Source: Marsupella aquatica
Lineage: Eukaryota > Plantae > Marchantiophyta
Direction: 5' to 3'
DNA length: 64,000 nt
NCBI GenBank assembly: GCA_973895155.1
Contig: OZ316896.1
Location: forward strand, 20,838,152 to 20,902,151
The notes under the pieces were generated by a model that was not told where the DNA came from, did no database searches, and saw nothing but the letters and a program-made list of their open reading frames with translations. Position numbers and translations under genes: made by a program. Position 1 is the first letter of the stretch; each line of letters opens with the position of its first letter. This document shows, piece after piece, positions 18,950-58,313 of this stretch.

Positions 18950-20950
18950 CTAAGGGAGGAGAAGAGAGGGACTCCACGAAGCAACCAGCTGCAATCCATC
19001 GGCGAGATCTTGGCAGGGTTTCAAATATGGAGCAACTTGAGCTATCTCCTTCCCATCCACGTCCTTGTTGAACGGACAGTCAAACTTGGAGACGGGGAAT
19101 TGAAAGCACGCATCCGTGGACTGACCCCGCACACAACTCCTGTTGCTGTCCCCTGGACGGCCACGCTGGAAGTCTATCAGCCATGGAGTCAAACCCCCAA
19201 GCCCTTGTGCTATTTGACCGTATGTTGATTGTGGACTCGTCACAAGCTCATCGACTAGTGACAAACAAATAATCTCCAAAAAGGCCTGATGGTCGCCTTC
19301 CAGATCAAAGGCTTGGAAACCATACTTGGACAGCTGAACAAGCTTCAGGCTCACCCTTTCCCCCTTCTTCTTCTTGAGTGGTTCCTGATACTCCTTCTCC
19401 AAATGCTCCCACAGCCCTGGGAAGAGTGAAGCTATGAAGATGACCAGAGGACCCTCAGTCTGGCTCAACCGTGAGGCAGCAGCTGGATCAGGAATGAGGC
19501 CATGATTCAGACCACATTGGCAGATCCGCTCGTTGACTAGAGTGTTGAGATTTCTATACATTCCAATTCCATCCCTGTACCTCACTTGCATCCCAACCAC
19601 TTTGCTTGCACTATTGAACTCCTTGGTATACATACCTCGCACCCTTCGCCAGATGGAGTCCACCGGAAGGGTCAGCTGGCGGAGAAGGTGTGTCACTGGG
19701 TCCCTGTTGGGAAACAGGTCTTCCAGAACCGGCTGAAAGGTTGGAATGGCAAATAGGTCAGGGAGGAAGTAGAGGCAACCGTTGATGAAATTTATCCATC
19801 TCACTCGCTGAAGACGCTCATGCTCATTGTCACAGAAGAATCTAGAATGGGGACCCCATCCTTCATTGGCTTGAACGTGATGGAAATAAGGGGGGGGCGT
19901 GTTTCCTGACGCGTCTTCTCCGATCATCATCAGTCTCCTTTCCACAAACTGAGCGGTCATTTCCTCCTCCATGCTACTCAATCCATCCCCATTTGCACTT
20001 GAAACAACTTCTGCCTGAATCCTCGCCATTGTGTGTCTCTTCTCCTTTGCTATGCTCTGTGCGTCGAGGATCCTCAATCCATCCTTGTTTGGAGTCTCTG
20101 CATTTTTCACACTCTCATGCTCGACTACCAGTGCCCTGTTGTCCCAATTATCCCAGGCTGTCTGGAACTCGCTTGGCTGGGGCCAGTTCAGATTCGAAGA
20201 GTATGGGAAATCAGAAGGGAGACCCCAAGAGGAGCCAGGGAAAGGCTCACAGAGAAGACTAGGAATGGTGGAATCGGTGTCAATGAGCAGAACTCGTTTG
20301 GTGAGCAAAGCATACTGATAGGCGGAGACCAGCCACAGCAGCCGGTTTCCAACTCCGTGTGTGCCAAACTCAACGACTGCGAATTGACAAGGAGTGCTGC
20401 TTTCGTTGCCTGATTCGAACAGCTTTGTCACGTATTCCATGTTTCCTCCATGAGTGCATGTCCGGTGGAGATTGGCATACTCATTGAACAAAACTTTCCT
20501 GAGAGTGGATGACTTACTTCCCTGCTGGTGGGTAGTCGTTGTGTTGGTGATTAGAGGAAATCTCTTCGGCTTGGTCCACAACCGAAACAGGTGCTGCCTC
20601 CCTGCACATGGGTTGGCTGCATCCCAAGCCTTCCTCCGCTCTAGGGACAGAACAGAGTTTGGCACTCCTCCTGCCGCTGCTATGGCCGCCCGCGTTTCCT
20701 CCACGAGAAGCCATCCAGGGGATCCCCCTGACTCCCCCAACTCCTCTTCGGCGTCTTGACGAATGAGAAATGCCTCCCAAGGATCGGCAGTCTCGACGTC
20801 GTCCTGAATTCTCCCCTCCCGAAGCGCTCCGTTGAAAACCAAGCAGAGGACGAGGCAGAGGAGCATCATGAGAGCCAAAGCTCGTCGCCTGCTGAACCGC
20901 AACAGGAATGGGCTAACGTTTATCCTTTTCATGCATTTGTTAAACGTCAT
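18950..20950 (-). CDS. GT37 (xyloglucan/AGP-type) alpha-1,2-fucosyltransferase family protein, single exon; first ATG at 20950
   Basis: N-terminal type II membrane anchor; GVGNRLLWLVSAYQYALLTKRVLLID, LLCEPFPGSSW, FFCD, VGMQVR and LVTSPQSTYGQIAQGLGGLTPW match the FUT1-family pattern. Confidence 0.9.
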   Translation of the reverse strand: MTFNKCMKRINVSPFLLRFSRRRALALMMLLCLVLCLVFNGALREGRIQDDVETADPWEAFLIRQDAEEELGESGGSPGWLLVEETRAAIAAAGGVPNSVLSLERRKAWDAANPCAGRQHLFRLWTKPKRFPLITNTTTTHQQGSKSSTLRKVLFNEYANLHRTCTHGGNMEYVTKLFESGNESSTPCQFAVVEFGTHGVGNRLLWLVSAYQYALLTKRVLLIDTDSTIPSLLCEPFPGSSWGLPSDFPYSSNLNWPQPSEFQTAWDNWDNRALVVEHESVKNAETPNKDGLRILDAQSIAKEKRHTMARIQAEVVSSANGDGLSSMEEEMTAQFVERRLMMIGEDASGNTPPPYFHHVQANEGWGPHSRFFCDNEHERLQRVRWINFINGCLYFLPDLFAIPTFQPVLEDLFPNRDPVTHLLRQLTLPVDSIWRRVRGMYTKEFNSASKVVGMQVRYRDGIGMYRNLNTLVNERICQCGLNHGLIPDPAAASRLSQTEGPLVIFIASLFPGLWEHLEKEYQEPLKKKKGERVSLKLVQLSKYGFQAFDLEGDHQAFLEIICLSLVDELVTSPQSTYGQIAQGLGGLTPWLIDFQRGRPGDSNRSCVRGQSTDACFQFPVSKFDCPFNKDVDGKEIAQVAPYLKPCQDLADGLQLVASWSPSLLLP

Positions 20951-23164
20951 TTTGAAGTCGCCCACCTGCCAAATCACACGAGTGCTACCCCTAGCGCCTA
21001 CGAAATTCTCGTTCTAGTATTACTGATGATTCCCAAGGCAAATTTGGTAGCGTTGCGTGAATACCCCCATTGTTTCTTCCCGGCAGGGCAGTTTCTCACG
21101 GGTGCTGTACTGTCAGCTGGCAGTAAGATGGCAGTCCTGCACTTAGATTCAGAAACGCTCAAAAAATCCTGTCCTTGGAACGTAACAGAAACTCCTCAAA
21201 GATTTGGGCCAAAGCTACCGGACTCGTCTGCATAGTTACAATAATTTTGGGTTAGTTAATTCAGTCCACAGCAAATCTCTCCGTTCCTGCGAGTGTACAC
21301 CAAAATACTGTTTCCACATTTGTCTCAGTCATGCACAGACTACGTGCCAGGTACAGTTCAGAAAAATTGAGTGGTTTTCGTGCGCTATGATATGCTGAAC
21401 TTAAATTTCCTCCATTAGCTGAATTTCTCTCCTTGCATTCTTAGCATATTTATGCATCGACTTTTGAAATAGAGGAATCCCTGGTGAGAACAAACCTCCA
21501 AAGGAATCCATCCGTGTCGATCTAACCAGCGTTCAGCTTCAGCTGACGCCATGCCGACTCTGAAGGTTGATTTACAGCAAGTTGGAATGACCTAAATAGG
21601 ACGTTTAGTCTGCAATCCATCACGTCCATCGATAAAATATAGGCAAATCATCACTTTCAGAGCCCAATGACGGCATGTGTCCGCTTTCACAGCTTCTAAT
21701 ATCAGACAAATCCCGGGTGCCATCATATTCATCCTTCAAGCTTAGCATTCTCACAGACAGGACCCTAAAATTGACTACAGCGCCTCCTGTTCCATTCGAA
21801 CTCCATGAAGTCAGCATATAACTAAACGGTGTGGAGGAAGATTGAAAAAAAACCATCCTACAATATGGAGCAGAACTGTTAAAACAAATTAAACAAAATC
21901 GTTTATAAATTTAAAAAATTGATTCAATTATCGATATCATTACACGCAAAAGCGTCGTTGAAAAAAACTAGCAAAGCCTGATCCGACATAGTGAATCGAT
22001 GTTAAGGGTAGAATGCCTGTAACTAGAACATTGAACGGAAAACTATACAGAGGGCCCGACAGCATTGGAGATAGGGGAGAGACGTGCAATTCACACAGGC
22101 CCGATGCGAAATTCCGGGTGATCTAGCAACTAACCTGCTGAACGAAATCCAATAACTGATAGATTCATGGATTCAACGACGCGGGTGGCAGAAGCCTGAT
22201 CCGCAGAATCCTGATCCACTGATGATTTTGAGCAAAAGATTTATCCTGTCCTAACCTAGAAAGGATCCTCTGCCCTGCAGCCCACAACAGGCCCTCAACG
22301 ACAACAAAAAATATCTCCAATTCCCGCGCAGCATCGCCCCAGCCGGCCATCCCTACCCTGTTCAGTACATGACGTCCACGTTCGTTTCCATTCGAACTTC
22401 CACTGCTTCTCGCTCCATAGTCTGTCCATGGGCGTTTGTCTATCTACTCTGTAACCCTCCTTGTCATGCCTCCGAACGAAATCATCAAATCTCGGAACGC
22501 CGTTCCTCTCTCTCGCCCTCTTCGTCAGTCGGAGTAACGTGAGCAGCACCCTCTCACCTCCTTCCGCGAGAATGGAAAACAAATAATCCCGCCAAGCCAC
22601 ACTTCTTCGCGCAATGGCACTGAACCCGACCAACTCAGCGTGTCCTGCACCCCAAAGCAATTCCCATTCTTGTACATTTCGAAGGATTTTCTCTTCACCT
22701 CCCAATACTCCTCACTCCCCTCGCCTCTCTAGAATCCATCTCCGGGTGTCTCTCTCTCTGTGTCGTTGTGCTCCGAATCGTGAATGCACCAAGCCAGTTC
22801 TCCACTCATCCTCTGCTCCACCTCGATTCTCCTGTTCTTTACTAGAGAACTCTGCCTCTGGATCCCTCGGCTCTCGTCTGTGAAGCTTTGGGAGCTCAAT
22901 TGAATTCCAATCCAACACATCAAATTTCTCCTTCGGCCCTCCTCATGGACCTACTGTAAAGGAGAGAGGACACAGGACGGCGGAGAAATCCATGAGGTTC
23001 GACAAATTCAGCAATCATCATAGATGACGACTCGTCGACAAGCAGTCAGGCATATTCCATGCACGGAGAGTTAGCTGGGTAGCAATAGGCGGTGCAGAAT
23101 GGGCACCTTAGTTTATTAAAGTTTTATTTTGGTTTTAGCTAGGGTGTCCAATGTGAGAATCTAA

Positions 23165-23499
23165 GGGCTGTCTTGCATGTGCAAGAGTCCTCAAAAAAGT
23201 GGCCCTTACCAGCCCACAAATGTAGGGAAAAGTGCAAACCAAATCTACCAGGAGTGGGGAGCAGATACAGGGGAAAAACGTCCAGAAGTCTAGGTCGAAG
23301 ACGACGTGTTATGTCTACCATTTTGTTTTATTATGATTTGAAGGTTGGGGACCTCAAGGGCCGGAAATTTTCCGGCCCTTGCCCTTGCAACTCCACCAAA
23401 GATGGCGTCAAGACTGCCGAACTGTCGCTTGATTAAAAAAAGGCCACGGGTTCATTTCAGGGCCGGAAACCAAAAGACCTTGTACATGCAAGACGGCCC
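23165..23499. mobile_element. Tourist-like (PIF/Harbinger) MITE, 335 bp
   Basis: TIR GGGCTGTCTTGCATGTGCAAG / rc GGGCCGTCTTGCATGTACAAG; TAA TSD at 23162-23164 and 23500-23502. Confidence 0.8.
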
Positions 23500-23729
23500 T
23501 AAAGCCCTGATGGACCCAGACATTCTCCTGCATGCCTAACCCCAGGGACTGCAAAAAGTGATTGTTGCTTTAATCAAAAGCAAAGGGAGCAGATAGTAGT
23601 TGACTACTTTTGGCTACCTGGTGGAGAAAATAGTCAACACATCCTTTTTGAAAATGGTCTCTTTTCAATGTAATGTAGTCTGAATGGCTTAGCAACTTTA
23701 TTTTATTTTTATTTTTTAATTATTGTTTT

Positions 23730-24503
23730 CAAAAAACAAAACCTTTATTTCAATGGGAAAAAACAAGGCGCCAGCCTAGAGGAGGAGACAAGAAAGGACC
23801 AAAAGGACCAAAATAAGGGGGCTAAGAGAGGGAGCACCCTAGAGAGAAGAGAGAGGGCCAAACTAAACCAGTACGCCTAATGGGAGGAGACGAAGGAGTG
23901 AGGAGAAGATGACCCCAGGAAGCGGAATGATGTCTGCCACCAAACTGAACCTAAATGATGAGAAAGACTAAAGGAAGGATGAGACACAACCATAGCCAGA
24001 AATCCTGCTAGAAACAGCCTAAGCTAGCCGCTTTCCCCATTCTCCAAGTCAAAGCTGCCACTTGCAAATTCCGCACCACCAACCACACCTCTAACATCCA
24101 AAGGACATCCACCAAACCATACTAGAAGAAAGTTCAGAACATAACTCTGGGCCTTCCAGGGCCCCAACATCAAAGAGAGAGCCTCCTGCCAATGTCTCCT
24201 CCCATCACAACCTTTGTGCACCTCAGGGAAGATTATAGAGGTCAGCCTGATATATCATTTTGTGCTCTTGCAACAGGACCCTGGGAAGGGCCATGGGCTA
24301 AATCAAGAACCCGCTACCAAAGAGGAGTGTAGTCAAATCCGGTAACTTGATCAGCCATCCATCCTGCAGAGAGAAAGCAACTTTTCACCAAGTCCAAGAA
24401 TGACCAGGAAAGATAGATACCGCATGGGCTCCAGATAATCAGGAGAGAAAAAGGAGATTTCCGGATTTCCAGATATCAGAGACAAAAAATGCCGTAGAAA
24501 TAT
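23730..24503 (-). mobile_element. Probable degenerate LINE 3' fragment, target of the Pangu-like insertion (may continue at ~30633-30800)
   Basis: Broken zf-RVT-like C..C...EETL..LF and LW..W..RN-like residues on the minus strand, followed by AATAAA. Confidence 0.35.
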
Positions 24504-24784
24504 ATTAGGGCATCTCAAATATGGTTTTTTATTGGATCTTTCGGGCCGCCCGCAAGGCACTCGAGTCACCCGCAACATGCTACTACCGGGCAACTATCTT
24601 GAAGGGTCATGAAATATGAGACGGGTCGCGGTTGAATATGCAACTGGGTTGCCCCCGTAACTGCGTCGTGGGTGCTCATGCAAGTTGGTTTCCACCTACT
24701 GCGGTTAACCATACATAGACAACGTCGACGCCTCACTCTGCTCCCCCCCTCAAATTTTTGAACGCGCCGACAATTACAAGCTCC

Positions 24785-26414
24785 ATGAATGCTTTGGACG
24801 AATGCAGCGACATTTCAAATTGGCATTCCCTCGCTCAATTTGGGGCTGAGCCTGAATTCCGCAGGATTGACATTACAACAGCAAAAATGGCAAGCACAAT
24901 AGGCATTTCTCCTGGCAGATCTGAGGTGAACAATCTTGATTTTCCTCCTCCGCATCAGTCCCGTTGTTCACATTTTGAGAGCGTTATTCCTGACTCCCAA
25001 CTTCCTGAATCGCTCCTCGACATGGTGCCACCAGCTTCTGCCATGGCTCCAGGTGGGGACAATCGTAAGCTGTTGCCAGTGCACCTTGCTCACATCGTGG
25101 ATTGGCTAGAAGTGCCAGAGAACTTTGCTATGCTCAATGGGACCAGTAGCCGCCCTTCTGTTACTGGCAAACATCCGCCAAAGAAGACTGTGTTTAAAAA
25201 GATGCTTATCTACCTCCATGACGTTGGTTTTCCTAAATTTGTCGCCACAGGAGATAACCTTGGGAAACGGTTTCAACGTTTCATAAAAAAGTACAAGGAG
25301 GCCCTGGCGATGAAGCAAGACTCTGGTGCAGGATTAACAGATGCTGAATTGAGACAAGGTCTTACACTGGCAGATAAGTATGAGAAGGTGTGTCCCCATT
25401 TCGAGCGCATGCATGCAATCTATGGGGAGAGAGCAAATGTGTCACCTCCCAGCACAGCCGCATGTGGGTTACAAGGGCATCAAGAACTATACGTTGATGA
25501 GGGTTCGGATGACGATGAGCTTCCTGAATCATCATTTCCAATCCACAATGACCTGGAACTACCACAATTTAGGTAAGTTTATGTCTTTCTCTTTTGCCTT
25601 TAGAGCATCATGATCATTTTTCGGCAATCATAGCTGGATGTTTGCCAAAATTGGATTGTACACAAAATGGACTGTGAGTAGTTATATAATTGGGTTTCAT
25701 TTTTCACTCTATGCAACCGACCACAATTTCCAGTTTGCTCAAACCATCTCCGAAGATGACGTCGAAGGCGGTCCACCTCCTGCTGGAGGCAACACCTCAG
25801 TTGATGAATCGCTGCCCAATACTCCAACTGAGACTCAATCGCAGCCTGCATCAAATTGTCCTAATGTGGAAGAACCAGTCCCAACTCCAACTTCCAACCC
25901 GGCATCCGCACCCACACGACCACACGGTAGGAGCAGAGGCACGACATCTGCTCATCCAACCATCACACAAGAGCGAGGTAGTGTACGACCTCGGCAAGGC
26001 AAGAGGCCATCGCCCACACAGGCTAGCTCTAGGCCCGATCTAGCTGAGGTGTATGTTGAGAAATTGCAAGACAAGAATGCTTTCAGAATTCAGATGATTG
26101 ATGCAAGGGACAGATGGAAAGCTCAAGAAATTGCTGACAGGAAAGAGGCCAGAGAATCAGAAGCATTCAAGGAAAAGATTATGATGGATGCCAAATCGGC
26201 AGAGTTGGCTAAAAGGGATCGGATTCAACGTAGACAAGAAGAAAAACGAGCAAGAATTGACCTTCATCATCAGCTGGCTATCATCAAAGCCCAGCAAGCA
26301 ACAGTGCTATTAACAGAGATTCTCAAGCAAGACAAGGGGCCTGATCACTTTAAGATAATGATGGGTATTATACATGCTGGAACTACGATTGCCCCAGATG
26401 GGTCAATCCCATAG
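24785..26414 (+). CDS. Transposon accessory Myb/SANT(trihelix)-like DNA-binding protein; exons 24785-25572 and 25634-26414 (possible further 60-nt intron 25674-25733)
   Basis: IVDWLEVPENF...KKYKEA...SGAGLTD...EKVCPHFERMHAIYGERANV resembles Harbinger ORF2 proteins; acidic/Pro-rich linker and C-terminal coiled coil; a GTAAG...TAG intron joins the two ORFs in frame. Confidence 0.7.
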
Positions 26415-27010
26415 TTGTATTTACTTTGTTGTTGTAGTAATAGTAGTAGTAGTAGTTACTGCTGCTATTATTGCCAACAGCTTGTACAAAAATCTACCGG
26501 ATCCAAGACCTCAGTTTTGCTCCATGGCCGAGTGGATGTCATTGGTAATAAAGGGGCCCAAGAAATTTCCTATATCAATTCAATTGATCCCTATGTGTTA
26601 TATGGTTTACGATTTTTGTCAGAATTTTTGCTTTGACTGAGGAAATCTGTCACTGAGGCAAACGAAGTGACAAATGCAAAATCGTGCAAAGGCAAAACCT
26701 ATCTGTAGGAGCGTTGTCATAACACAAAAATGAGGCATCAATGAACGTGAACTGTCCATTGAAAAAACACAGCATGAACTCGTAGGGCAGTGAGCCAGTG
26801 TTAGGGAAAAAAACTGTCGAACAACTTCGACTCTTTCCATTCATGAAATCAAAATTACATGTTCAAAATCTACCAGATTGGATAAGCTGCTATGTGCCAT
26901 TGCAATCTCCAACGAATGAGGAGTAAAAATCCAGAACTGGGGTAGGGGCAGAGGCCCTTCTAGAACGGATAACTACGTAATGCGCAAGGAAACCTGGCCT
27001 ATTGTCTGAT

Positions 27011-27539
27011 TCAGGCAGTGGGCGGTCCACTATCCAGTGCTTGACCACTCTGGTCCTTGCTTCCTCCTTGCTGTGAACGCTCCATAGAAGACACCTCGCC
27101 CAAAGTGGACTCCCCAGTAGTAACTGACATTGTTGTTACTGTGCTTGAAGCCTCCAAGTCAAAATCGTCAACGCTTATGACTGGTAGATCAGGCATAGGG
27201 ATTTCCCAGTAAGGGCGTGCTGCCTCTCTCCCAAAAAGAACCGCCTCTGAATAGAGTAGGGCTCGCGTGGCCTCGACTTCAAGGACTTGTACACCACGGA
27301 AGGTAGCGTCAAAATTTTGCACCCCTGAATGTGGTCGCTGGAAGGCAAGCCGAGGTGCTTTGGGCCACAATGGAAAGCCACGTATAGCAATCCACATGGT
27401 GGCATCAGTTTGTCCCTTTCCTACAAGCCAAAGCCAAGTGTTCTCCATTCCCGTTGCTTCTCGTTGCTTCTCAATCACGAACAAAACTGGACTTCCTGAA
27501 TGCTGCGTTTGGCCGAATGAGAACTTGAAAATGTAAACT
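27011..27539 (-). CDS. Unknown-function ORF inside the transposon (5' end uncertain)
   Basis: Open frame of ~175 codons (VYIFKFSFGQ...WLWLVGKG...WIAIRGFPLWP) preceded by a TTGCAG acceptor; no recognisable motif. Confidence 0.4.
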
Positions 27540-27776
27540 CTGCAACTCTACAGCTTTTGGTCCAACCAAAACCGAGCTCAAAGTCAAACAAAACCTGAGG
27601 CTGGAGGACTCGCATGCTGGTCACATGAAAACGCAGTCGGGTACCTCACATGAAAACACCTTCAGTTGTCCATTGACAGTAGTACCAGATGTACCAAAGG
27701 TACTTTGAATGGTCTATTTCTTGAAAACAAAACGTGACACAAAGGACACATGCTTAAACCTGCCAAGTGTGCAGAG

Positions 27777-29296
27777 TTACTCCCCCACGCTGCATAGAAA
27801 TCTTCCAAGGGTCCTATTAAATTGCAGGGCAAAATCCATGACCTGCACTAGCAAGGCATTTCCTGCCTGTGATGTTGCTCGCCTTGATGCCCTAGGACGT
27901 CCTTCATAGTCGGATGGGTTAGCACCATCCACCTCAACCTGGTCATCCACCTGGTCATCTTCTGTCCACTCATCATTTTCACTAATGACATAATTGTGCA
28001 GTTTACAACAAAGGGTAATCCATCTCACCATCCAAAATGAATCCTTTTTTTGATTTAGTTGCACTCTTATCTCTTTCAGTGAATGCCACGGTGACTTAAG
28101 AACTCCAATACAATGTTCATTTGTAACTCAACATATTGCCACACAAGTGTTGAAGTCCTCTCTGTTGTTTGATAGATCAGCTCGTTTGAAGGAACATACA
28201 AAATGGGGACTGGCCTGGTAGCCAGAGTCACCCAATAAATATTGCCCTTCTTGGAACAATATGTTTGGACCCACCTGGTTGCAGTAGTCCCACAAGGGGG
28301 ACCTCCTGAGGCTAGTCAAGTCAACACATGATCCTGGCATTCCTGAATCATTCCAAACTTGAAGTTCAGTGGCTGGAAGAAATTCAAACACATAATTACA
28401 AGAGAAAATAAAGAAATAGTTATGCAAAAAAGGATCAAAGTACCTGTGAACATGAAAGTAATTCTTCGGTTGTGGTCACACACAACTTGTGTGTTAATGG
28501 AGTACCGGCTCTTCCTATCATAGTAGCATTCTCCATGTTCCTTTGGGCATTGTGTGAGTGGCATGAGGGACCCATCAATGAGCCCTACACATCCTGGAAA
28601 GCCATGTGCTGCAAATGTAGCCGAAATGGCCACTCTTTCAGTAGGCTCTGGCCAGACAATTTGGTCACACAGCACAGCCTCTAAAGCCACAAAACACCGC
28701 TTGCTGAAGTTGACTAGGCTGCCATAACTAACTCCCCAAGTTGGTATCAAATGGTTTATACAGGCCCCATTACCATCATGGCCAAGTCTGTCAAGACAGA
28801 CAGCTAGCTGTGTAATTATGGGTGCCTGACCATAATTTGATTGGGATTCAAAAATGGGATGAGATTCAATTTTGTTCACCAGACCAAAGAATGTTCGCTT
28901 ATCCATTCTGGTCAGCTGTCTGAAAAGTGTGGCAGGCAAGTTGTGGAAGTATTGGGTCACAAAATCAGCTGACTTAGTAGTCACTTGTCTTGGCACAAAG
29001 AACCTGGTGTTATAAAGCACAAAATACAATTCAAACATAGAAGTAGGAGTTTCCCCTTGAAATTCATGTGGATCATCTGAGATCTTTGAATCTTCACTAC
29101 TAGAGTCCATAGGTAACTCACTGTCTGATTCTAATAAAAGAGAGGCATTGCCCTGGTCCACTGCCGAGAGGTAGCCCATTGAAAGGTCAAGAGAGTCTGC
29201 ATCGGATGAAGAGTCTGAGGACTCCATAGCAATGTTTAGTTGAAGTTGATGCCTGACTGCCCTCAACTGTTTTTGGCGCTTTGAAACATGAGGCAT
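27777..29296 (-). pseudogene. Harbinger/HARBI1-type DDE transposase; exons 29296-28444 and 28342-27777; one internal TGA at 28130-28128
   Basis: FRQLTRMDKRTF, QLAVCLDRLGHDGNG, GFPGCVGLIDGS, YYDRKSRYSINTQVVCD, GMPGSCVD, YLLGDSGY, C*VTNEHCIGVLK, CCKLHNY; the frame continues past the stop. Confidence 0.88.
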
Positions 29297-29488
29297 AGTA
29301 AACGAAGCAGAGTACTGGAAAAGGTACAACAACAATGGGGCACATTGTTCAGAGTCTAACTACTACTGGTACACATAAATTGCACAATACCCATAAACTG
29401 AATGACATAGAATATACACAACATGAATTCACCAATGGACGCTTTATATGCAAAAACTGTCAATACATATGAGCAAATGATTGGGAGT

Positions 29489-30169
29489 CTAGTCTGACAG
29501 GTCAGTGTCCTCAAGAGCTTCTATCAAATCAGCTAGGATTTTTTTGGCACTCTTTGGCTTCGTAGGAGTGCAATCCCACTGTGGGATTTTTTTGGGTGTA
29601 CCCTGGTTGGGCGAAATTGCTACGCTTGTACCTACATGGACCCCAGGACTGCTTGTACATGCATCGTGCACAAATGCCAAACGCTGGATGTGCAGCTCCA
29701 TATCTTTCACCTCAAGCCACACTCGCATTTTAGGACATTTCTGCAATACTTTGTGGACAGTGAGTAGTTGTTGGATTTCATCTAAAAGGCTGAATTCCCT
29801 TGGTTGTACATTCAAGAGCACAGTTGCCTGATCCCAGATCAGGGCTTTGAGTGGAGGGGTGCCGCCGTTCACAACATCAAAGAGAATTAGTTGAAATCGG
29901 TATTTTGGCTCCCCAAGGGCAGAATGCCCACATTTTCGACCAAACTCTAGGGATTTCTTACAGGCTTTGCCAGGCTCAATGGGTTGAGAACATCCTGAAT
30001 ATGTAAACTTCCTTGGAAAAGGATTTCTCGCGCAATAATTCCCTGCCCAGACTAGCGAAGGAGGAAAGGACTCGGTTTTGCCTACAAGCCTTGCGTCCTC
30101 CACCACTGAAAGGGAAGTCCAGTCCCCCATGGCCTGGAATGCCACATGACACAGAAATTTCAAGCCCAT
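29489..30169 (-). CDS. RPA1 C-terminal-like OB-fold/zinc-ribbon protein carried in the transposon (alternative start 30130)
   Basis: FTYSGC..CKKSL..CGH..PKYRFQLILFD..ALIWDQATVLLNVQPREF fits the Rep_fac-A_C pattern YxAC..CxKK..C..RY.l...D.....fd..a..llG; intact 226 aa. Confidence 0.6.
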   Translation of the reverse strand: MGLKFLCHVAFQAMGDWTSLSVVEDARLVGKTESFPPSLVWAGNYCARNPFPRKFTYSGCSQPIEPGKACKKSLEFGRKCGHSALGEPKYRFQLILFDVVNGGTPPLKALIWDQATVLLNVQPREFSLLDEIQQLLTVHKVLQKCPKMRVWLEVKDMELHIQRLAFVHDACTSSPGVHVGTSVAISPNQGTPKKIPQWDCTPTKPKSAKKILADLIEALEDTDLSD

Positions 30170-32109
30170 AGCTATCTAAAAGGCAGAATCGCATAAAGGC
30201 ATTTCATATTGCAAGTTTTGATTCAAAGACTTCCTTACAAATTTGAGTAGTCGGGTGACGAACTGTTTCAGGCCGCTGCACAAACAGTCGTCGATGAAGC
30301 TCGTTGAAACTCACTGCTCGTGAAGAATGCTCACCAAGCTGACCTGATCCAAGGGCCCTCGATGAAGCACACTCGCGTCGAGCTTCTTCGCAAATTTTCC
30401 GCTCTGTGTCGCGTGGCTCTGCCGCGCTAAACCCCTAAGCTGAACTCCTAAACCCTTAACCTTGGTTACGCGCAGTTGAGCGCAGTCGGGCGCTCATTCT
30501 CGGTCACGGAACCCGGGCGTGACTGATCCGGTGTCGCATGCGACGCCCGACCAGTCATGCATGTTGCCCCGACCGGCTACAGTCTCGGGCGCGGTCATTC
30601 GTAAAAAAAATGCATATTTGAGACGCCCTATTAGAGTATCCCGAGAGAAGACTCTCTCCAGAATACGTGTCCGGTCCTCGCTGCAGCCCAACGGAGAATG
30701 GAGAAAGTGGTGGCCCAGGACTGAAGAAAAGTTGGCCAAGGAGCGAAAACATGAGACCCCAAAGCAAAAGGAGACTGCCTCCATCATTGCTGTTCAGCCG
30801 TAACTAGATGGAAATTTGACTATTCCACATTAGCTCAAAAGAAAATAAGGGAAAGATCCTGGACATCTATTTGCTTGCAATAATCCATGGACCCCCTTGT
30901 TTCTTTACATAATTAGGGTGTTTTAAATTAATGAGCTTAGTTGGAGTTAGTGTTTTCAATCATCCTTACTGACATTGTCATCATTATTCTCACCAGGAAC
31001 AGCTCTTTGTTGCAAGACCCATTTGCTATTGCATGAAAATTTGTTCTCTTCCTCTTCCTCCTTGAAAAAATTCTGGACTCTTTATGTCATTTTCATCCTT
31101 TTGCCAGGAAACTCTCCCTACCTGTATTGCCAGGAAAATAGATTGCTTGAAGGGAAGGGAGCCGTTCAAGCGCAGATAATTCATTTCAAGTGCTCATTTG
31201 CAAAAATGTTCCTGGAGTGATTACACATTTTGTTGGCACACCCTGTAAGTTTCTTCCTTGTGCTGAAGTTGGGCCTGCATAAAACATTGGAGAATGAATA
31301 TATCATTCCCCATAGTGGGCTACCCTACAGTTCTGCATGATTATTGTCAACTAATGGGTGGATACTCGTTTGGTTAATTTCAAGGGGGAAGGAAAAAACT
31401 TCCATGGAATGGAAGTAAAGCCAATCAACATCCACCAAGTTAAATGACTTGCATGCCCTTAAATGAAATAGAAATTCTCATTGATATATTGAAAGGACAA
31501 TTTAAAACAGAAAATACAGTCCATGTTGTACGGGAGATTTCCTATGGTCTGTTTACAAAATTTCTTTCCGACTCGAACGGCCTCCAACTATCGGGGAGCC
31601 TCTTTGGCCATTCAATTATTGTGACATTTCTTCCTAACCATGAGGGTCCTAAAATTGTCATCGTGCACCTTTTGCCATGCCCAACCTCATCACTCTCCCC
31701 ACAACTCGCACATTCCTTGAAATCCAGTTCATTGTGAGACCGGTTCATGAATTATAGTCTTTGATTCAATATTTAGAATCTGTTTGGGTAGTTAGAGGCA
31801 TGGGAGTATGTGGCCTTCCTGTGCATATCACGGGTATTGGGGCTGGTTAAAATTACTCACGGTGAAGTGTAAAGTGAGACACCTTGGCTATGGTGGAGGG
31901 GATGCGCACAAGTATTCAGGCTCGACAGTTGCACTTGTGCATGTTGAATTGGCCTTAGTTGCACTTATGCACTGATAGTGGACTGTAAGTGAGAAATCTC
32001 TACTATGGTGGAAGGAGGAGAGGCCCTACAAACTTGCCGACTCAGGGCATGAGACATGCCATGGCATTGTCTAATTCATCCAACCTAGCGTTGGGTAGTA
32101 CCTGTAGAA

Positions 32110-32690
32110 TCACCGGATATGTTGACAAGACGACTGCAGGCGGACAACTTAGGATTTGTAATGTCATGGAAATGGTTGACTCAGACAATTAATTGAGGCA
32201 TTTGTTGTCCTCGTGCATTGCCACTCTATGGACTCCCAAAACAAACACTTTACAATGATTCACAACAAACTTGCGTCGGCCTGGCGCCCCAATGCACATC
32301 CAAAGATCCTTGTCTTCGTGCATGCCATAGCAAGCGCTCAAGCTGCCACAATTCTTGACCATTTTACTATTATTGTTGTTTTGCATTTTGGTCTACAGTT
32401 GACGTTGTGCAGTGGTCTGTGGAGAATGGTAAGTTCCCACATGCTCTCCTCAAGTTGTATCGAGTGGTGTTTGTTGAGCAAACCGAAGAGCGTATTCTGG
32501 GCGGGGATGTAGAGCAGCTCATCTACATTGTGGAAGAAGGTTCATTGAGTGGTGAATCTGGTTTTGTATATGTAGTTGTTGATGAAGAGGACCTACTTTA
32601 GCTACCAGCTTAGGTACGCTTTGATGGCGGTGAGCAATTCAACATCATTTGATCCATAGTGCCAGCATATGTCTTGCTTTTGTGTTCAAT
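32110..32690 (-). pseudogene. GT92/DUF23 (GALS-like) glycosyltransferase pseudogene fragment
   Basis: K*VLFINNYIYKTRFTTQ*TFFHNVDELLYIP restores by transitions to QVLFINDCIYKTRFTTQWTFFHDVDELLYIP; downstream RRKFVV...VFVLGVH and NHFHD parallel GALS RKYAV...VFATGVH and HYH. Confidence 0.55.
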
Positions 32691-32719
32691 GCCTCCATGA
32701 GATTAGAAGTAGAAATGCA

Positions 32720-33810
32720 TTCATGCAGTGTTAGATTCTTCTAAGGGAGAAGATTGAAGAGAGGGACTCCCATGAAGGAACCATCTACAATCCATAGGTA
32801 AGATCTTGGCAGGGTTTCAAATAGGGGCAACTTGAGCTATCTCCCTCCCATCCGCATCCTTGTTGAATGAACAGTTAAACTTGGAGATGGGGAATTGCAA
32901 GCATGCATCCGTGGACTGTAAACCCGAAACCCTACACACAACTCTTGTTGTTGTCCACCGGATGACAATGTTGGAAGTCTATCAGTCATGGAGTCAAGCC
33001 CCCAAGCCCTTGTGCTATTTGACTGGATGTTGATTGTGGACTTATTAGAAGCTCATTGACTAGTGAAAACAAATCATTGGCCTGATGGTCATCTTTCAGA
33101 TCGAAGGTCTGGAAACCAAACTTAGATAGCTAAACAAGCTTCAGGCTTGCCCTCTTGTCATTAGAATCTTGACGGGTTCCCCAAGTGGTTCCTGATATAC
33201 TCCTTCTCTAAATGCTCCCAAAGCCTTGGGAAGAGTGAAGCTATGAAGATGATCAGAGAGCCTTTGGTCCAGCTCAACTATGAGGTAGCAGCTGGATCAG
33301 GATTGAAGCCATGATCCAAACCACTCGTTGACTATTGTGCTAAGTTTCTATACATTCCAGTTCCATCCCTGTACCTCACTTGCATCCCAACCACTTGCTT
33401 GCACTACTAAACTCCTTGATATACACATTTCGCACCCTTTGCCAGATGGAGTCCATTGGAAGAGTCAGCTAGCGGAGGAGGTGTGTCATTGGGTCACTAT
33501 TTGGGAATAAATATTTCATAACTGGATGAATGGTTGGAATGGCAGATAGGCAAGGGAGGAGATAGAGCAATTGTTGATGAAATTTATCCATCTCACTTGC
33601 TGGAGATGCTCATGCTCATTGTCACAAAAGAATCTAGAATGGGGACCCTGTCCTTCATTGGCTTGAAAGTGAGAAATAAGGTTGTTGTAGTGGGGGGGGG
33701 GGGGGGGGGTCAATTTCCAGACATATCAATCTTCTTCGGTCATCACAATCTCCTTTTCACATACTGAGCGGTCATTCCTCATCCATGCAACTCAATTCCG
33801 TCCCCATTAA
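32720..33810 (-). pseudogene. Degenerate copy of the 3' half of the GT37 fucosyltransferase gene (source ~18920-19993)
   Basis: Colinear nucleotide similarity (AGATTCTTCTAAGGGAG, GATCTTGGCAGGGTTTCAAAT, GAAATTTATCCATCTCAC); peptide ANEGQGPHSRFFCDNEHEHLQQVRWINFIN; many stops and frameshifts. Confidence 0.9.
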
Positions 33811-45886: not shown

Positions 45887-46731
45887 AGCTTTTTTGGGAG
45901 GTGTAATGTATCGAATTTTCGCCACTAAAAAAAACGCTGGTGTGGGCACTGCCATTCCCGCGCTTTCCAGGGCTCCATCGCTCTGTTCTGAACTCGCCAC
46001 GAATGTCTACCACAGACTACCGTATGAAATAATTGGAGGGAGAGGCGAGAGATTCTCAGGCAGCTCTCCAGCTTGGAGAGTCTCTGCCTTCTCTCGAGCA
46101 TATGCATGACTTCGTCTGGAGCAATTGTAATGTAGAGCATGTGAAAAGGGAAGCCTGTGAGATCTCACTGACCGATGGCTGACCTGAGGGATACCATAGA
46201 GAAATGGGGTGAGATTTCAGTGTGGAGAGTGAGTGAATGGGTGATTGACTGTCCAGCTGAAGGTTACAATTGGGTGTAGTGGTTATAGAAGTGGAGGGAA
46301 CGAGTGAGTGAGTGAGTGAAATCAGCCTCTGGCTTTTCAGACCTCACTGATCGACACCGAGCAGTAGAAGATTGACCTTGGCATTCCACCGACAGATCTA
46401 TGAATTTCAGGTGAAGTCAGAATAGTCGTTGAACCCTCACTTTTAGGGTTCAGAGAGCGAGTGCGAGAGAGAGAACACGGAATGGCCTCAGGGTAATCGG
46501 AGAATTTTGCTGGGAAATTCTGTTTAGGGGACGAATATGGCTGGGTAAATCCCCATGGTCAATGTGAGACCTTCAATTCTGTGAGGAGCAGATTATATAT
46601 TTATGTAAGGGGTGTGAATTTTCGTTGGAACCATCATAGAAGAGAGCTTGAAAGGAAGCGGGGACATTATGGAAGTGAGAGGGAGGGAGTGAATTGCATA
46701 TTGAAGGGGGAGGAGCAGGAGGAAGGTGACA

Positions 46732-49700
46732 ATGAAAAGACAGCAAGTAATATCCCGGTTCTTTGCGCCCAAGGAAAGCAGCTCCTCCTCTGCCTCGACT
46801 CAAAATGCTGCCTCTTCCAAAGAGAATCCCACAGTTTCCGTGTCTCCAAGGGTTCCAGCTCCCCCTTCCGTAAAGAAAGCATCCCCTGTGGATTGGCCTC
46901 GGAGCAGGAGGCGAAGAGCACTGAATTCCGAATCTCTTCCTTCTTCATTTTCTAGGAAGAGAACAATTGATAGCGTCAACAGTGCTGGAAGTATTTTGTC
47001 GTCCGATCAAGCCATCGAAGGAGAAGAAATAGTCGAGTTGCACTCTCGGAAGAAACGATCCAGCTTGACCCAGAGGGCTAGTAGCTCGTGGGTAGATGGA
47101 AATGAAGGATTCCTGGTACCCCATGAATCTGAATCTGAACTTGCTGTTGATGTTGAACCTCCTGAAGATGAATCTGATCCAGAAGGTTTACCCACGGAAC
47201 AAGACGAGTTGAGCCATTTGGAGGAATCTGACCATCCAGGTGCATCTGCTGATCTACATATATGGTCGGAAGGAGATGATAGTTCTAAGAGTTATTTCAA
47301 GGCAGCTGGAGAGATCTTATCCTCTACTTTGGATGCCAAGCAGTCCCAAGCGAGGCCAATTCGAGACTACAGGGCGGAGATCCCGGCTTCCAATCCCGTT
47401 AAGCATAAGCTTTTTGTAGAGAAGCTTTTGGCTCGAATTGACAAGAACGGGGAGGTCAGGAAACCCTGGTATGGGAGTCCCCCAACTGGAAAAGAGAAGC
47501 TCACCCCCTTAGAGGTTCAAGTAGTTGAGCTGAAGGCCAAATACCCAGACGTAATGCTGATGGTGGAGGTTGGTTACAGATATCGTTTCTTTGGCGATGA
47601 TGCAGAAACAGCGGGCCGAATTTAGGGGATTTTCCCTCACTACGACCATAATTTTCTCACGGCTAGTATTCCCACCTTTAGGTTGCATTTTCATGTGAGG
47701 CGGTTGGTGGCTGCTGGATTGAAAGTGGGGGTCGTGAGACAGACAGAAACTGCCGCAATCAAGGCTCATGGATCCAACAAAACTGGACCGTTTACCAGAG
47801 GTCTTTCAGCGTTGTATACAAGATCAACTATAGAGGCAGCAGAGGACTTGGGAGGTGGAGGGACAGGGGGCCAAATATCTCGAATCAGTAGTTATCTTAT
47901 GTGTATAGCGGAAGGCCGATTCATGCCGGGAAGAGTACCGTCATTAAGAACGCGAAGCCTCTAGGACACGAGGCACCAGGGTCGGAGAAAGATGTTGGGT
48001 CCAGGAGTGGAAGTTACGACACAGAATTCGGTGTAGTAGCTGTTGAAACAGCAACTGGGGATGTCATGTTTGGAAGCTTCAAAGACACTGTTGTGAGAAC
48101 TGACTTGGAGAGCCACTTGATTACTTGCTCTCCTGCGGAGCTTCTTCTTGCAACTCCACTTTCTGCCCCTACAGATAAGGTATGTCCACCTTAGAGGTAC
48201 AAAACACTTACCACGGGTTTCGATTTATGTTCTCTTCCAATGATGTAGTAGTCTGATGTGGTCCTGTCAACAATTTATCTATCAAGCAACCTCATTTTTT
48301 CGTTCTAGTTCCGTTGTGTAGGTGGCACTTCAATGTCCACCTTTCCCCCTTTTGATAGTGCATATGGCCGTTGTCGACTCCGTCGAGACAATATATTTCA
48401 TCCGTTTTGTCAGCTTCGGAAACAGTCTGGCCACCTTTGGCTCGAGCTCCTCCCGGCAGCTTTCATAATTTCCTCATTGTCACACTTTGTTTTAACTTCT
48501 GGGTTGTGGTGGGGTGTAGCTTCTCAAAGACTTTGCAGGTCCTTCATCAGAGATTCGGGTAGAGCGAGTTTCTCGGGACTGTTTTAAGGATGGGGGGGGG
48601 GCGTTGGCCGAAGTTGTTGACTTTTATACTGCTAAGGATGATTTTGAGAATGCTGACATCCTGGAAGCCGAAGGGAGGATAGCTGAAAATGGCTTGGAGG
48701 TAAGAAGTTTTCCTCTTGAGAAGTCCACATCAGGACTTTCCGTGATCCAGTCCTTCATCGCCAAATAGATCTGCATGACGATGGTTTTTTTGAGAATCTT
48801 TAGACGTACAAATTGCAGCTACTAGCTAGAACTCGTTGATATTATCACCGTGGTTCTGGATTTATGTAAAGTCAGTGAGACATTGAAATAGCACAATATG
48901 TTTCAGAACAGAGTATTAAACCATATTTAGGCTAGGGACTGGTGAATTGAACAACCGGTTTCTGATAGTATTGTAGAACATACGATTGAGGAGCGTGTTG
49001 GTGCATTTCTCTGCAATGAGTTGATCACGACGTGGTTTTGTAGGTTATAATGGCAATGCCTGACATTGTAGTGCAAGCTTTGGCCCTAGCCTTGCGGTAC
49101 CTACAGCAGTTCAATCTGGAGAGAGTGTTAAGATTGGGTGCGGTCTTTCGGCCTTTCTCTGGTTATAAGGAGATGAATCTTTCTCCTAACACACTTCGTC
49201 AGCTGGAGGTACCCAAACGGCCACACGTTCATATTCTGTTATGAATGTGCAGGAGAAGCTTTCTGTCATGCAAAGTACATCCTTTCGATGATGGTTGAAG
49301 CATACCGAACCTTATTTATGAAAACAAAGATAGTATTTGTGAACATGGTTTCACGATAATACTCTTCTAGGTGCATCATTTAGTGGCTCGTTCATAATCT
49401 TGAAGTATTAAAGTATCTCACAGATGTCGGATGGCTGACTCTCATCAATTTTCTTACCTGCGCTAGATCTTGAATAATAATACAGATGGGAGTAAGAAAG
49501 GTTCTCTGCTTTGGCTTATGGACCACACTGAAACTGCATTCGGCGCGCGTCTGCTTCGATATTGGGTGAGCTTTTTCATATGTCTTTACTCCTCATGTTT
49601 TGGTATTGCCAATCCACATATGCCACATGCGTGGATAATCTCAACTACTTCGGGCTCGATCAGTTAGATCCTAAATTTGATCTCTATCTGTCCCTTGGGA

Positions 49701-52700
49701 GTGGGATTGACAGGCATGTACTTCATTAAGGGCTGACAGGAAATGGCTGTTGTAGGTGACACATCCATTGTGTGATCGCATCCTCATTGGGGCACGGCTG
49801 GATGCGGTGGCTGAAATTGCCAAGTCCACTTGCAGTTTAGGACGTGCACAGATTGAAGGTACTTTTCCGGGCAGCGGTAGAGGGGGTGGGGCCAGTCGTT
49901 CACTCCACCAGAATTCAATTGGTGGTCTGCTTCGTACTTTGGGGAGAATGCCGGACCTGGAGCGTGGTCTTACCCGAATCTTCCATAGGACTGCAACTGC
50001 AGCAGAGGTGCCAACGAAAACAAGCTGCAGCTTAGAGAAGAGTTCATATCGTGTGAAAGTTCTCTGTTGATGTTCCACCCAAATTGATCACAGTTGTCCC
50101 TTTCAATTCCCTCAACTAAAGATTATTATAAAAGTCTAATTGCCCAGCGCACATTGGTCCCCAATTCGAAACTCCGGAAAAAGACGTGATGCAATACCCA
50201 CATTATAATGACAGATGCTTTAGTGTTTACAATGTTTTTCTTTCGTTTGTGTCAAATCTCGAAATTTTTATGGGCTTGAGTGAAAGTGGGAAACATCTAT
50301 CAAACAAAGTTTCGGTCACGAGATGAGTGAATTTCAGTCCACTACAGGAATATCTGGAACAGTTGTACTGCTCTCGTGATCTGATGTATAGTTTGTTGGG
50401 TGCAGTTTGTGAATGTTATTCAAGCGCTCATCACATCTGCAAAACATTTGCAGCGACTGCGATTCGATGGGGAAGACATGGACAGCGTATTGGAAGAGGG
50501 GGCAGAGGAGCAGAACAAGAAAAATCAATCCACATTATTGCAAAGGCTTGTTTCAGCTATATCCTCACCATCGCTCTGTGAGCATGCAAATCGGCTGCTG
50601 TCTGCCTTAAACACGGATGCTGCTACAGCAGGAGACAAGCTCAATCTCTTTAATTGTAAAGATGGAAGGTTTCCAGAGGTTTATTGCTCTTCAACCAAAT
50701 TGTGATTTATTTAAAACCAATTATAGACAAAGTTGAGTAAATATGAGCGAACTCGTTGAGCATTACAGCCATCCGTTTCAGAGTTTGAGTGTACAGTTTG
50801 GTCATCGCAGCCCAGGTTTCTAAGTTTAATGCATTTTTCTTATGCTAGTCACCTGGGCTCAACCAGCTCGTTGGATAATGTTTCAGTCAACGTTTTTCAG
50901 ATATTAAGATGATTTTCTTGTGGATCATCTGCAGGTCGCGAATTGCCGTCTAGCGATCAAAACTGCGGAGAAGGAATTGGATGAATTTTTGCCTGGTTTT
51001 CGTAAATTACTCAGACTTCCGAGCTTGCAATACATATCGATAAATGGCCTTTCGCATCTTGTAGAGGTCAGTACTGTAAGGCTGTCTTCCTGGCTTCACT
51101 TCCTTACGTTTCAAATTTCCATGTTAGGTGCATTTTTTGTTCGGTAATACATTAAGTCCTTCCTATGCTAGTTACCTTTATTAAAGAAATTCAAGAGAAC
51201 TACCAATCCATTTTGTAGGCTAATGCTGAGAATCTTAAGATGGGGCCAGTGAGACGTCCACTGCGTCTCCTCAAAAGAGGGTGCTTTTGAGAGTGATACT
51301 TAGGGAATTCTTGGAGTTTTCACTTATCTTAAGTTCCTATAACTTTACGAAAAGAGAAATGAAAGTTACAAAGATTGGACATGCATTGGTAGACTCATCT
51401 CCTGCATAAGTTGCCTCTGGCTCTCTATATGCTATCACTTCTATGAATCGAATGGACTTAGGCAAACTTGTGGCTGATCCAGGCCCCTGCAGCTCAACGT
51501 GTACCAGCAAACTGGATGAAAGTGAACAGTACAAAGAAGACCACTCGGTATCATCCACCAGAACCTTGAGAGCAGAGATAAGCTGGCACTTGCTCAGGAA
51601 GAGTTGGCTGTAGCTTGTGTGAGGGCATGGAATTTGTTCTTGGCAGAGTTTTCTACTCACTATGTTGACTTTCGAGCTTCAGTGCAGGCCCTTGCTGCAT
51701 TAGACTGCCTTCACTCTCTTGCTCTGCTTTCTCGCAACCAGGTGCTCATCTTGACCAAAGTTAATAGACTTGTTCCATTAAAGTTTGCGCTTTCCTCATT
51801 CTCTTGTTATTCTTTCTAACAGGTTAGGATATTTTTCTGTTTTTGAATCCTGAACCCCTAGGGCTACACCAGACCAGAATTTGTTGGAGATTCTGAGCCC
51901 TCGCAACTCAGGATACAGTCGGGCCGCAATCCGGTACACCTTTTCAACCAGTTTATGTGCCTGATTTTTTTCTGTGTTACGGCAACTTTCCATGACAGCA
52001 TGTGCCTTCCAACTCTTGTGGGTGTCAGATTTATTATTAACTGTTCTAGACAGAAGTAATAAACCGCTGAAGGATTCACTGAAAGTTCCGAAAGTAAAAC
52101 ATGTACGCAAGAGTCTTAAATTGGCTTTACCATATCGGAGCGTAAGTGATAATGTATTGTAACTATGTAGGATTTAGTTTTGAATGTGTGGACATGTCGT
52201 CCTATCTTTGCCTTTCTTTCTTCAATATAGGCAAAGCACACCCCCCCACCCCCGCCGACCCCTCTCATATTCGCTAGCAGAAACAAAATTAAAGCTGTCC
52301 TCATTTTGTCTTCGTAGAGTTCTGTTTGGGAGTGTACGCGTCCCGAAGTGTGTATTGTATATGGCTTTTAAATTATTTCTAATTATTTCTGTTACAGCAC
52401 TAGCATGGCATGTGTGTTTTTGTGGGGAGTGTCTTGGTGACCATACTGACGGAAGACTTATCTTATGCAGATTCTGGACTCGACTCTGCAAGATGCGTTT
52501 GTACCAAATGATACCTTTTTGGGTGACCCAAATGAACGTTGTCAGATAATCACAGGACCAAACATGGGCGGAAAGAGTTGCTACATTCGGCAAGTGGCCT
52601 TGATTGCCATCATGGCCCAGGTACGCGGTGATTTTGTAACAAACTAGCTCGTTGCGGTAGATTTGGAGTTTGAAGAGAGAGGCTCATTTGATTGATTGCA

Positions 52701-54166
52701 TGTTCTTGCTTTCTCGGCTTCTGTGGTAAACCCCAGGGAGGTCGAGAAGTTGTCTATCTCATTCTGAGGTTGCTCGTCCGTGTAACATGAATGGTTCATT
52801 TAATGGTAAGTAACTGTTTCGTACCCTGTTTTCTGTGAAGGTGGGCTCATATGTTCCAGCTTCATCTGCAAAGCTCCATGTCTTTGATTCTGTTCAGACT
52901 CGCATGGGTGCATCTGACAGTCTGCATAAAGGGTCAAGCACTTTCTTTGAGGAGCTTAGTGAAACCTCTACCATATTGAGAACTGCAACCTCTCGGTCGT
53001 TGGTTATATTGGATGAGCTGGGCCGAGGGACAAGCACCCATGATGGAGTAGCAATAGCATATGCTACGCTGCACCATTTACTGAAGGAGACGAGGTGTCT
53101 GACTCTCTTTGTTACTCATTATCCTAAGATTTCTGAGCTGATGGATGAGTTCCCAGGAGAGGTGAACTCCTATTATGTGTCTTACATGGCACATGAATCA
53201 GGGGCAGCGAAGGAATTGACACTAGACTCTAGCCAAGGTGGCAATGAGATATCCGAGGACTCGCAGACCATCACATTCTTGTACAAGTTGGTGCCAGGAG
53301 TCGCAAGCAGAAGTTTTGGTCTGCATGTTGCTCGGCTTGCACAGGTCAGACAAATTCCACCCCCAGTAGTTGTCTATCCCATATCTACATTACTTTTTGT
53401 TCCGGTTTGCCTTCATGGGGTATCCTTGTTGGGGTAAAGAGCACTGATATTATTTGGTTAGGGACGGGACGCCATGCTTAAAATCGAGTCTTCAAGAAAG
53501 CTTGGACCTTGGGTCTAACCGTTGTGTTATTTTCTGAATCCTCAGATTCCTGAAGCGTGTGTGCTTCGCGCCGCCAGTATGGCAGCCAAGTTTGAGAAGG
53601 AAGTCAGCAACCGAGAGATTTTGGAGGTCACAAGTGACTGTGTTGAGGGGACCCGCAACATAATGACCTTGTCGGAGTGCAGAGAAAATGGCACTAGCAA
53701 TTGTCTTGAGGACAAACCCAATAAAGGGATCTTGTTAGATAGTAGGGATGCCAACAACTGCGTCGAGGTAGGACCCCACAATAGGATCGTGTTAAGTGAC
53801 AAAGGTGCCCCTACCAAGAGTGGAGACGGTTTGGAAGAGTGTCGTTCTGTAGAGACCGAGGGCACAAACATAGCCCCTGACAGTAACCAAATAGTTCGTA
53901 CTTCAATTGGAAATATTGTAGAGTTAAGTGCTGAGCCAACAAGTAGTAGCCTGGCAACCTTTTCAACAGATCGGCTTGAAGATGGAAGTCTTCCGGATGG
54001 TAGACATGTGTATACGACAGAAACTAGGAAGTTCACAGCTGAGTCTGACCTTAGAGCGCTGTTTTTGTCCATGAAAGATGCCCTAGAACATCATAATGAT
54101 CACGCAGAGTGTATTTCTTTGCTTATAGACATTCAGAAGCAGGTACGGGCGACAATCTACAGTTAA
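46732..54166 (+). CDS. MSH3: DNA mismatch repair protein MSH3; 12 exons: 46732-48179, 48520-48699, 49044-49208, 49467-49565, 49756-50007, 50406-50678, 50935-51066, 51483-51741, 51862-51933, 52471-52620, 52841-53344, 53546-54166; frame lesions in exons 1 and 8 (pseudogene or assembly error)
   Basis: N-terminal PIP box [10 protein letters not shown]; [21 protein letters not shown] (MSH3-type domain I); [15 protein letters not shown]; Walker [11 protein letters not shown]; RMGASD..STFFEEL; [16 protein letters not shown]; FVTHY; [10 protein letters not shown]. Confidence 0.92.
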
Positions 54167-57479: not shown

Positions 57480-58313
57480 AAGTGACAAAGATGCCCCTAC
57501 CAAAAGAGTGTAGCGGATTTCGACGAGTTTCGTACTGTAGAGAGTGAGGGACCAAAAATAGCTTCTGACAGAAACGAAATAGTTCTTAGTTCTATTGGAA
57601 ATATTGTAGAGTGAATTGCTGAGCCAACAAGTAGTAGCCTAGCATCCTTTTCAACCGATAAGGTTGAAGATGGAAGCCTTCCGGATGGTGGGCATGTGTA
57701 TAGGGACAGAAACTGCGAAGTTAATTTACAGCTGAGTCTGACCTTCGAGCGCTGTTTTTGTCCATGAAAGATGCCCTGGAACATCATAATGATCACGCAG
57801 AGTGTATTTCTTTGGTTATAGACATTCAAAAGCAGGTACGGGCGACAATCTACACTTAAATTTAAATTGCGGAAGTTTTGCTCCCCACCAATCTACAAAG
57901 AGAGCCGTCTGAAAAATTCAACTTAGAAATAGATGCCCTTAAATCCCAGAAGTTGATCCAATCGATTACTGTACTTCGCAGCTTTGCTGGCTTCAAATTG
58001 AAGGCTTCCAAAATACTTTAAAGTTGGGTACATTGCGGGGTACATTGAAAGGCACTTGAACTACTTAACCCTTCAGCGACCTGTTGGCCGTCCCAGTTGT
58101 AGCTGCTCATTCGATACCAATCTGAGCTCCCAAACGGAAATGATGAATAAATCAGGTCGCCCAATACGATATGATGAAACAAATCAGGTCGCCCAATAGA
58201 AAACTAAGGATTCTTGAAATGAACGTCACGCATCAGAAAATCAGGACCAATTGTAGGATACTGGGTACGTACCTAAACCCATAAAACGAAGCCGAAGCAC
58301 AAATTGGGAAAGA
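57480..58313 (+). pseudogene. Duplicated fragment of the MSH3 last exon and 3' flank (source ~53793-54568)
   Basis: Colinear match (ATTGGAAATATTGTAGAGT, GCTGAGCCAACAAGTAGTAGCCT, CAGGTACGGGCGACAATCTACA, GAAGCACAAATTGGGAAAGA) with indels and stops. Confidence 0.9.

Follow-up and report, generated by a model that had tools for sequence, protein, structure and literature searches.

Cut-and-paste transposons are thought to leave the repair of the breaks that they make to the host, and Helitrons produce long single-stranded DNA (ssDNA) via rolling-circle transposition. RPA genes, often fragmented, are carried by the Helitron-like elements HLE1 and HLE2 as these are described in PMC11417382, which bears out what an earlier note on the DNA considered here had said about RPA-like cargo in Helitrons. 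Most PHIS elements consist of two open reading frames (ORFs) according to Han et al. (2015, PMC4482050), and the additional gene reported below is therefore not needed for PHIS chemistry generally. Within PHIS, the Pangu group is defined in the same paper by target duplications of the form ANT and by terminal inverted repeats (TIRs) of 11-40 bp that start with AG or GG. Stable genes beyond the transposase and the second ORF are described for two PHIS lineages, a SET gene in HarbingerS and a TET (TET/JBP) gene in PHISTA (PMC12730594).

Here, we studied a stretch of 64,000 nucleotides from the liverwort Marsupella aquatica (the window; contig OZ316896.1, positions 20,838,152 to 20,902,151). The window carries spliced genes and has land-plant nuclear character. 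A decayed partial copy (~32400-33500, minus strand) of an intact 687-codon ORF at 18950-21013, which we take to be fucosyltransferase-like, was seen in the translations, and 57497-57892 is a diverged second copy of 53519-54166, the last exon region in a gene at 46705-54166 that is presumably MutS/MSH3-like. Fragments at 58571-59638 (plus strand) and 61166-62832 (minus strand) resemble, as we read their motifs, Copia gag and Gypsy integrase. The subject of this report is a TIR-bounded element of 6.1 kb that contains a DDE_Tnp_4 transposase gene, a gene for a predicted OB-fold protein (the OB gene) and two further ORFs, and whose features are as follows.

24504..24506, plus strand: left target duplication, ATT (or the 5-base TATTA, 24503-24507)
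24507..24523, plus strand: left TIR, 17 bp counting the terminal A (alternative start 24508)
24785..26414, plus strand: ORF4, two open frames (24719-25576 and 25614-26414) probably joined by an intron, convergent to the other ORFs
27011..27547, minus strand: ORF3, 178 codons from stop to stop
27777..28341, minus strand: transposase exon 2, with a stop codon at 28128-28130 in the window copy
28342..28443, minus strand: putative GT-AG intron of the transposase, whose acceptor yields the join FTG-MPGSC as in homologues
28444..29296, minus strand: transposase exon 1, DDE_Tnp_4, region of the first catalytic Asp
29489..30130, minus strand: OB gene, 213 aa from Met14, frame open to 30175
30613..30629, minus strand: right TIR, matching the left TIR at 16 of 17 positions
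30630..30632, plus strand: right target duplication, ATT (or TATTA, 30629-30633)

The top-scoring inverted repeat within 22000-33000 pairs 24503-24533 with 30603-30633, and contigs from runs X3 and X4 represent the empty site, connecting 24470 to 30629 with a single copy of the junction sequence and a flank slightly diverged from that of the window. Filled and empty sites are compatible with one insertion that duplicated either ATT (element ends A-GGGC) or TATTA (ends GGGC); taking GGGC as the ends leaves TTA and TAT as 3-base flanks, not the TWA of canonical PIF/Harbinger. The element is multi-copy and of the cut-and-paste type, and the proposal that the OB gene sits inside such a transposon, made in the earlier note, is upheld by the TIRs, the neighboring DDE_Tnp_4 gene and the empty site. 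Helitron identity, by contrast, is contradicted by the TIRs, the target duplication, the DDE transposase and the lack of a RepHel transposase: DDE_Tnp_4 was the sole family, with no Helitron family, in a Pfam scan of seven element frames, and a rough, weak scan of the sequence that separates the OB gene from the transposase detected no Helitron 3' end. An imperfect 44-bp palindrome occupies 30517-30560 in the right subterminal region. Separately, a 335-bp Tourist-like MITE lies at 23165-23499, ~1 kb from the element, with GGGC ends matching at 15 of 16 positions and TAA flanks on both sides.

By its sequence, the element seems nearer to Pangu/Harbinger2 than to canonical PIF, the transposase having been compared by eye: shared with that group as described are a DDE_Tnp_4 transposase and short TIRs with AG or GG starts, and the duplication, if it is ATT and not TATTA, would fit ANT/AWT (PMC4482050). 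Closest by eye is Pangu-2_MLP (Harbinger-3_MLP), with which the catalytic block has 21 of 32 residues and an NEH-x-IG end in common (Figure S3 of PMC4482050), and for which the target duplication is given as AWT (PMC4482050). The window element is unlike the group in having four ORFs instead of two and a length of 6.1 kb against a mean of ~3.5 kb, and no land-plant host appears among the 30 rows compared, out of 35, of the Pangu table (PMC4482050). The nearest named relatives, for the OB gene and the transposase alike, belong to two liverworts, Calypogeia fissa and Riccia sorocarpa. The transposase had 13 matches, a small set, among 89 candidates; the sole named non-liverwort transposase among the 13, P0114, is from an oomycete (its gene model name is of Phytophthora type) and is 47% identical over the region. 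Metagenome scans gave 221 pattern matches with the transposase alignment and 36 with the OB alignment, with 0 confirmed relatives in either.

The transposase lies directly downstream of the OB gene on the same strand. At 28128-28130, where the window copy has a stop codon, other copies read a sense codon; the window copy is therefore not autonomous, and its OB gene is intact. ORF4 had no Pfam or PDB match and presumably sits where PHIS elements carry their Myb/SANT-like second gene. ORF3 had no Pfam or sequence-search match, its fold predicted from the single sequence reached a pLDDT of 37, and diverged copies covering the region occur in each of the four runs; it contains a motif that we take to resemble the start of a PWWP domain, and it could be a second accessory gene.

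The OB gene, which is separated from the right TIR by fewer than 500 bases, had been described in the earlier note as an intact 226-aa ORF with a set of zinc-ribbon and OB motifs. The frame is intact and the motifs are all present, namely YSGC (C60), CKK (C70), CGH (80-82), KYRFQLILFD and WDQATVLL, numbered here by the 226-aa form that the frame encodes from the ATG at 30169. The length, however, is to be revised: homologues begin at the equivalent of Met14 (ATG 30130, with an acceptor-like AG immediately upstream), and matches to diverged copies end at 30141, with one base inserted at 30144 in some copies. The first 13 codons are thus probably noncoding, which would leave a product of 213 aa. 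In the predicted model, the protein consists of a domain (14-168), a disordered linker and a C-terminal helix (208-221).

Searched alone, the window protein matched 0 Pfam families at E<=1 and no PDB sequence, and a word-indexed search returned 1 match, or 2 with a profile. A phmmer search of 1.84 billion representatives returned 98 matches at E<=0.001. One of these, P0016, was spurious, being a WASH-complex protein, and was dropped, so that the family stands at ~97 stand-alone proteins. We aligned 61 rows (the window protein, P0001 and 59 of the 98 phmmer matches, picked by length), of which 32 have zero residues ahead of the domain, the longest N-terminal extension being 73. Weak matches to CDC24_OB3 and Rep_fac-A_C at E<=1 occur in 9 and 6 of the 61 members, respectively, the best at E 8e-4 and short of the curated cut-off. 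The family profile, compared with 177,635 PDB sequences, had a sole match at E<=10, the DBD-C domain of yeast RPA1 (6i52_C, E 3.9e-4). Within the family, P0080 (a Riccia sorocarpa gene), P0086, P0092 and P0093 form a subclade whose shared C-terminal extension is longer and matches no named Pfam family.

An AlphaFold model of the OB protein reached a pLDDT of 85, with the domain mostly above 90. All nine Foldseek matches at E<=0.001 are RPA or Teb1 chains or RPA-containing complexes (best E 4e-5), and the best matches of Foldseek and VIA-align alike are RPA70 DBD-C and Teb1 OB-C; in VIA-align, the first seven rows are RPA or Teb1, headed by U. maydis RPA1 (Z 13.6, rmsd 2.8, 136 aligned). In the model, a zinc finger splits the barrel by separating strand 1 from strand 2, as in RPA1 DBD-C, and this zinc ribbon after the first strand is common to the RPA1 domain (Rep_fac-A_C; PDB 4gnx_C, 1l1o, 6i52_C) and to Tetrahymena Teb1 OB-C (3u50), at Z 13.0-13.6. 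Atlas look-alikes of the homologue P0010 are Rep_fac-A_C clusters, with feature scores below 0.9 that make them a lead. The OB protein is thus predicted from its model to fold like RPA1 DBD-C, in agreement with the resemblance to the RPA70 C-terminal OB domain first noticed from motifs; profile and structure comparison recover the OB fold through the family profile and Foldseek, but not through a Pfam match of the window protein itself. Identity to RPA1 chains is 13-20%. Unlike RPA1, the OB protein stands alone, lacks DBD-F/A/B, is encoded by a transposon and has its tail helix on a long linker. It also differs at the zinc site, and with these domains missing and the zinc spacing different it is not an RPA1.

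A fourth zinc ligand that appeared to be His in the window protein is a family trait by sequence: C60 is invariant in the 61-row alignment, and 51 of the 61 proteins combine it with C70, C80 and a His at most four residues further on. The commonest spacing, C-x9-C-x9-C-x1-H, is found in 27 of the 61 rows, whereas the yeast RPA1 chain has C-x4-C-x13-C-x2-C, which the family does not share. This C3H site may bind metal, and zinc sites of archaeal RPA are described as either C4 or C3H (PMC8329085). For the binding surface, we used U. maydis DBD-C, in which six ssDNA contacts are given, including Y479, Y487, I524, W537, F541 and F590 (PMC8329085). Y487, I524, W537 and F541 were transferred by their spacing (37, 13, 4) onto the yeast chain and then onto the family, leaving out Y479 and F590. 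Across the 61 rows, the equivalents are Y57 (aromatic in 98%), R91 (basic in 80%), K108 (basic in 62%) and W112 (aromatic in 97%), so that, of the four contacts mapped out of six, two remain aromatic as in RPA1 DBD-C and two have turned basic. Net charge of the domain ranges across the family from -9 to +11, with a median of +2. The nucleic-acid-binding face is likely kept but altered, and because two of the four mapped contacts are non-aromatic and the zinc spacing differs from that of RPA1, the surface may serve another purpose.

Does the OB gene belong to the transposon lineage? It is carried with the element's diverged copies: all four runs contain many contigs 80-99% identical across the OB gene, and one contig at ~90% identity spans the transposase start and the OB stop. 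The more distant relatives were assessed by the sizes of the Logan contigs on which they occur. OB homologues P0002 (50% identical) and P0008/P0103 (38%) lie on contigs of 3608, 5965 and 2983 bases, and the transposases P0116, P0120 and P0105 (the last 54% identical) lie on contigs of exactly 3608, 5965 and 2983 bases; three exact matches between 22 OB and 10 transposase contigs compare with a null mean of 0.08, or P ~0.002 when counted as two independent families. The expectation that homologues would be linked to Harbinger-type transposases thus holds in equal contig sizes, which is the basis of linkage for the distant families and covers the near clade rather than the 41 distant tree rows, which may ride in other element types. 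It does not hold among named accessions, where 0 of 4 OB accessions adjoin any of the 8 in a small set of named transposases.

This last result favors a reading in which the gene is a passenger, a fragment captured from RPA1 or a Helitron RPA that does not serve transposition and whose family is kept by selection elsewhere, in host genes or other elements. Single-base indels in the OB ORF of some copies, as well as the often fragmented RPA genes of Helitron-like elements (PMC11417382), fit the same reading. Against this, the window copy has an intact OB ORF although its transposase is broken, and variants of the domain among copies lean synonymous (10 of 15 against 34% expected, p 0.01, in the best-supported 40 of 413 rows). 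Homologues at 38% and 50% identity also sit on contigs sized like transposase contigs, no Helitron family is matched by the element ORFs, and no multi-OB RPA1 or Helitron RPA was matched by phmmer at E<=0.001, so the capture must be old. We therefore regard a mere passenger as improbable, and an extra gene conserved within a Pangu-like PHIS/Harbinger lineage, likely of liverworts, as the best explanation.

What such a gene would do for its element is a matter on which we are evenly divided between one proposal and all others. The earlier note had suggested that it could assist excision-site repair or strand transfer. The proposal, drawn from fold and context, is that the element encodes the OB protein as a helper, which would bind single-stranded or gapped DNA where the element leaves or enters and would dock via its tail helix. 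Its origin would lie in a single capture from an RPA1-like gene followed by loss of DBD-F/A/B. DBD-A/B, the strong-binding domains of RPA, are absent from the OB protein, and binding by DBD-C within RPA is described as weak (PMC8210275). The protein would therefore act in complex, and probably depends on partners or on self-association. Docking would fall to the amphipathic tail helix on its flexible linker, which would contact the protein itself, another element protein or host RPA2/RPA3. Held in this way, the protein could cover the resected ends of the excision break or short gaps at the insertion site, and repair would then end by sparing the host cell or restoring the donor copy. A complex of the OB protein with transposase exon 1, predicted without alignments, scored 0.01, which speaks neither for nor against docking.

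The docking part brings in a second reading, by which the protein mimics RPA1: DBD-C and the tail helix would join host RPA2/RPA3 into a short RPA without signaling or strong-binding domains, blunting the damage response or redirecting repair at element breaks. DBD-C is indeed the RPA1 part of the trimerization core, whose bundle is made by the terminal helices of all three subunits (PMC8329085), and a DBD-C domain and a confident C-terminal helix are just what the family retains. The helix, however, is ~40 disordered residues off the barrel, the structural match to RPA70 stops near model residue 173, and an identity to RPA1 of 13-20% is low for a protein fitting conserved partners, so we consider the mimic unlikely. 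Bolder still is the idea that liverwort cut-and-paste elements built a miniature RPA1 of their own. Joined to host RPA2/RPA3 or to the transposase, it would bias repair of the excision break toward copying the element back, so that transposition ends in net replication and a transposon gene controls the choice of repair pathway in a plant whose dominant phase is haploid; this we offer as a speculation with little probability.

A third reading takes the protein away from breaks altogether and gives it a part in anti-silencing or targeting, where its OB fold would bind element RNA, R-loops or a sequence in the subterminal DNA and act with ORF3 on chromatin. Epigenetic third genes exist elsewhere in PHIS, SET in HarbingerS and TET in PHISTA (PMC12730594), and two stacking residues of the OB domain are swapped for basic ones. 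CpG is not depleted in the subterminal regions, with observed/expected ratios of 1.04 (24507-24780) and 1.19 (30140-30629), compared with 0.19-0.53 in the element ORFs. However, CpG-rich ends may be plain promoters, the domains closest in structure are those of DBD-C, which bind ssDNA, and the resemblance of ORF3 to a chromatin reader is unsupported by Pfam, sequence or fold. Weighing these points, we judge an anti-silencing role to be rather unlikely and retain the helper at excision or insertion sites as our preferred proposal.

RPA cargo in Helitron-like elements and extra genes in PHIS are known; what would be new is for a DDE element to carry an RPA-like gene, with a function that we infer. 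Our literature search, with Repbase reports and subscription papers outside its scope, found no Harbinger or other DDE element reported to contain an RPA-like or OB gene, and RPA is not mentioned in the available part of a PIF/Harbinger bioRxiv paper (10.64898/2026.05.26.728016). The extras of HarbingerS and PHISTA are epigenetic enzymes (PMC12730594), whereas here the product is a predicted nucleic-acid-binding domain of repair type, and the OB gene would thus stand beside SET and TET as a third kind of PHIS extra gene. The finding adds an unannotated family of stand-alone DBD-C proteins with a rearranged C3H zinc site, and the OB protein is of a size that suits direct binding assays and structure determination. 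For the elements themselves, an RPA-derived gene kept under selection down to 38% identity suggests that some of them have either a break-repair factor of their own or a repurposed RPA domain.
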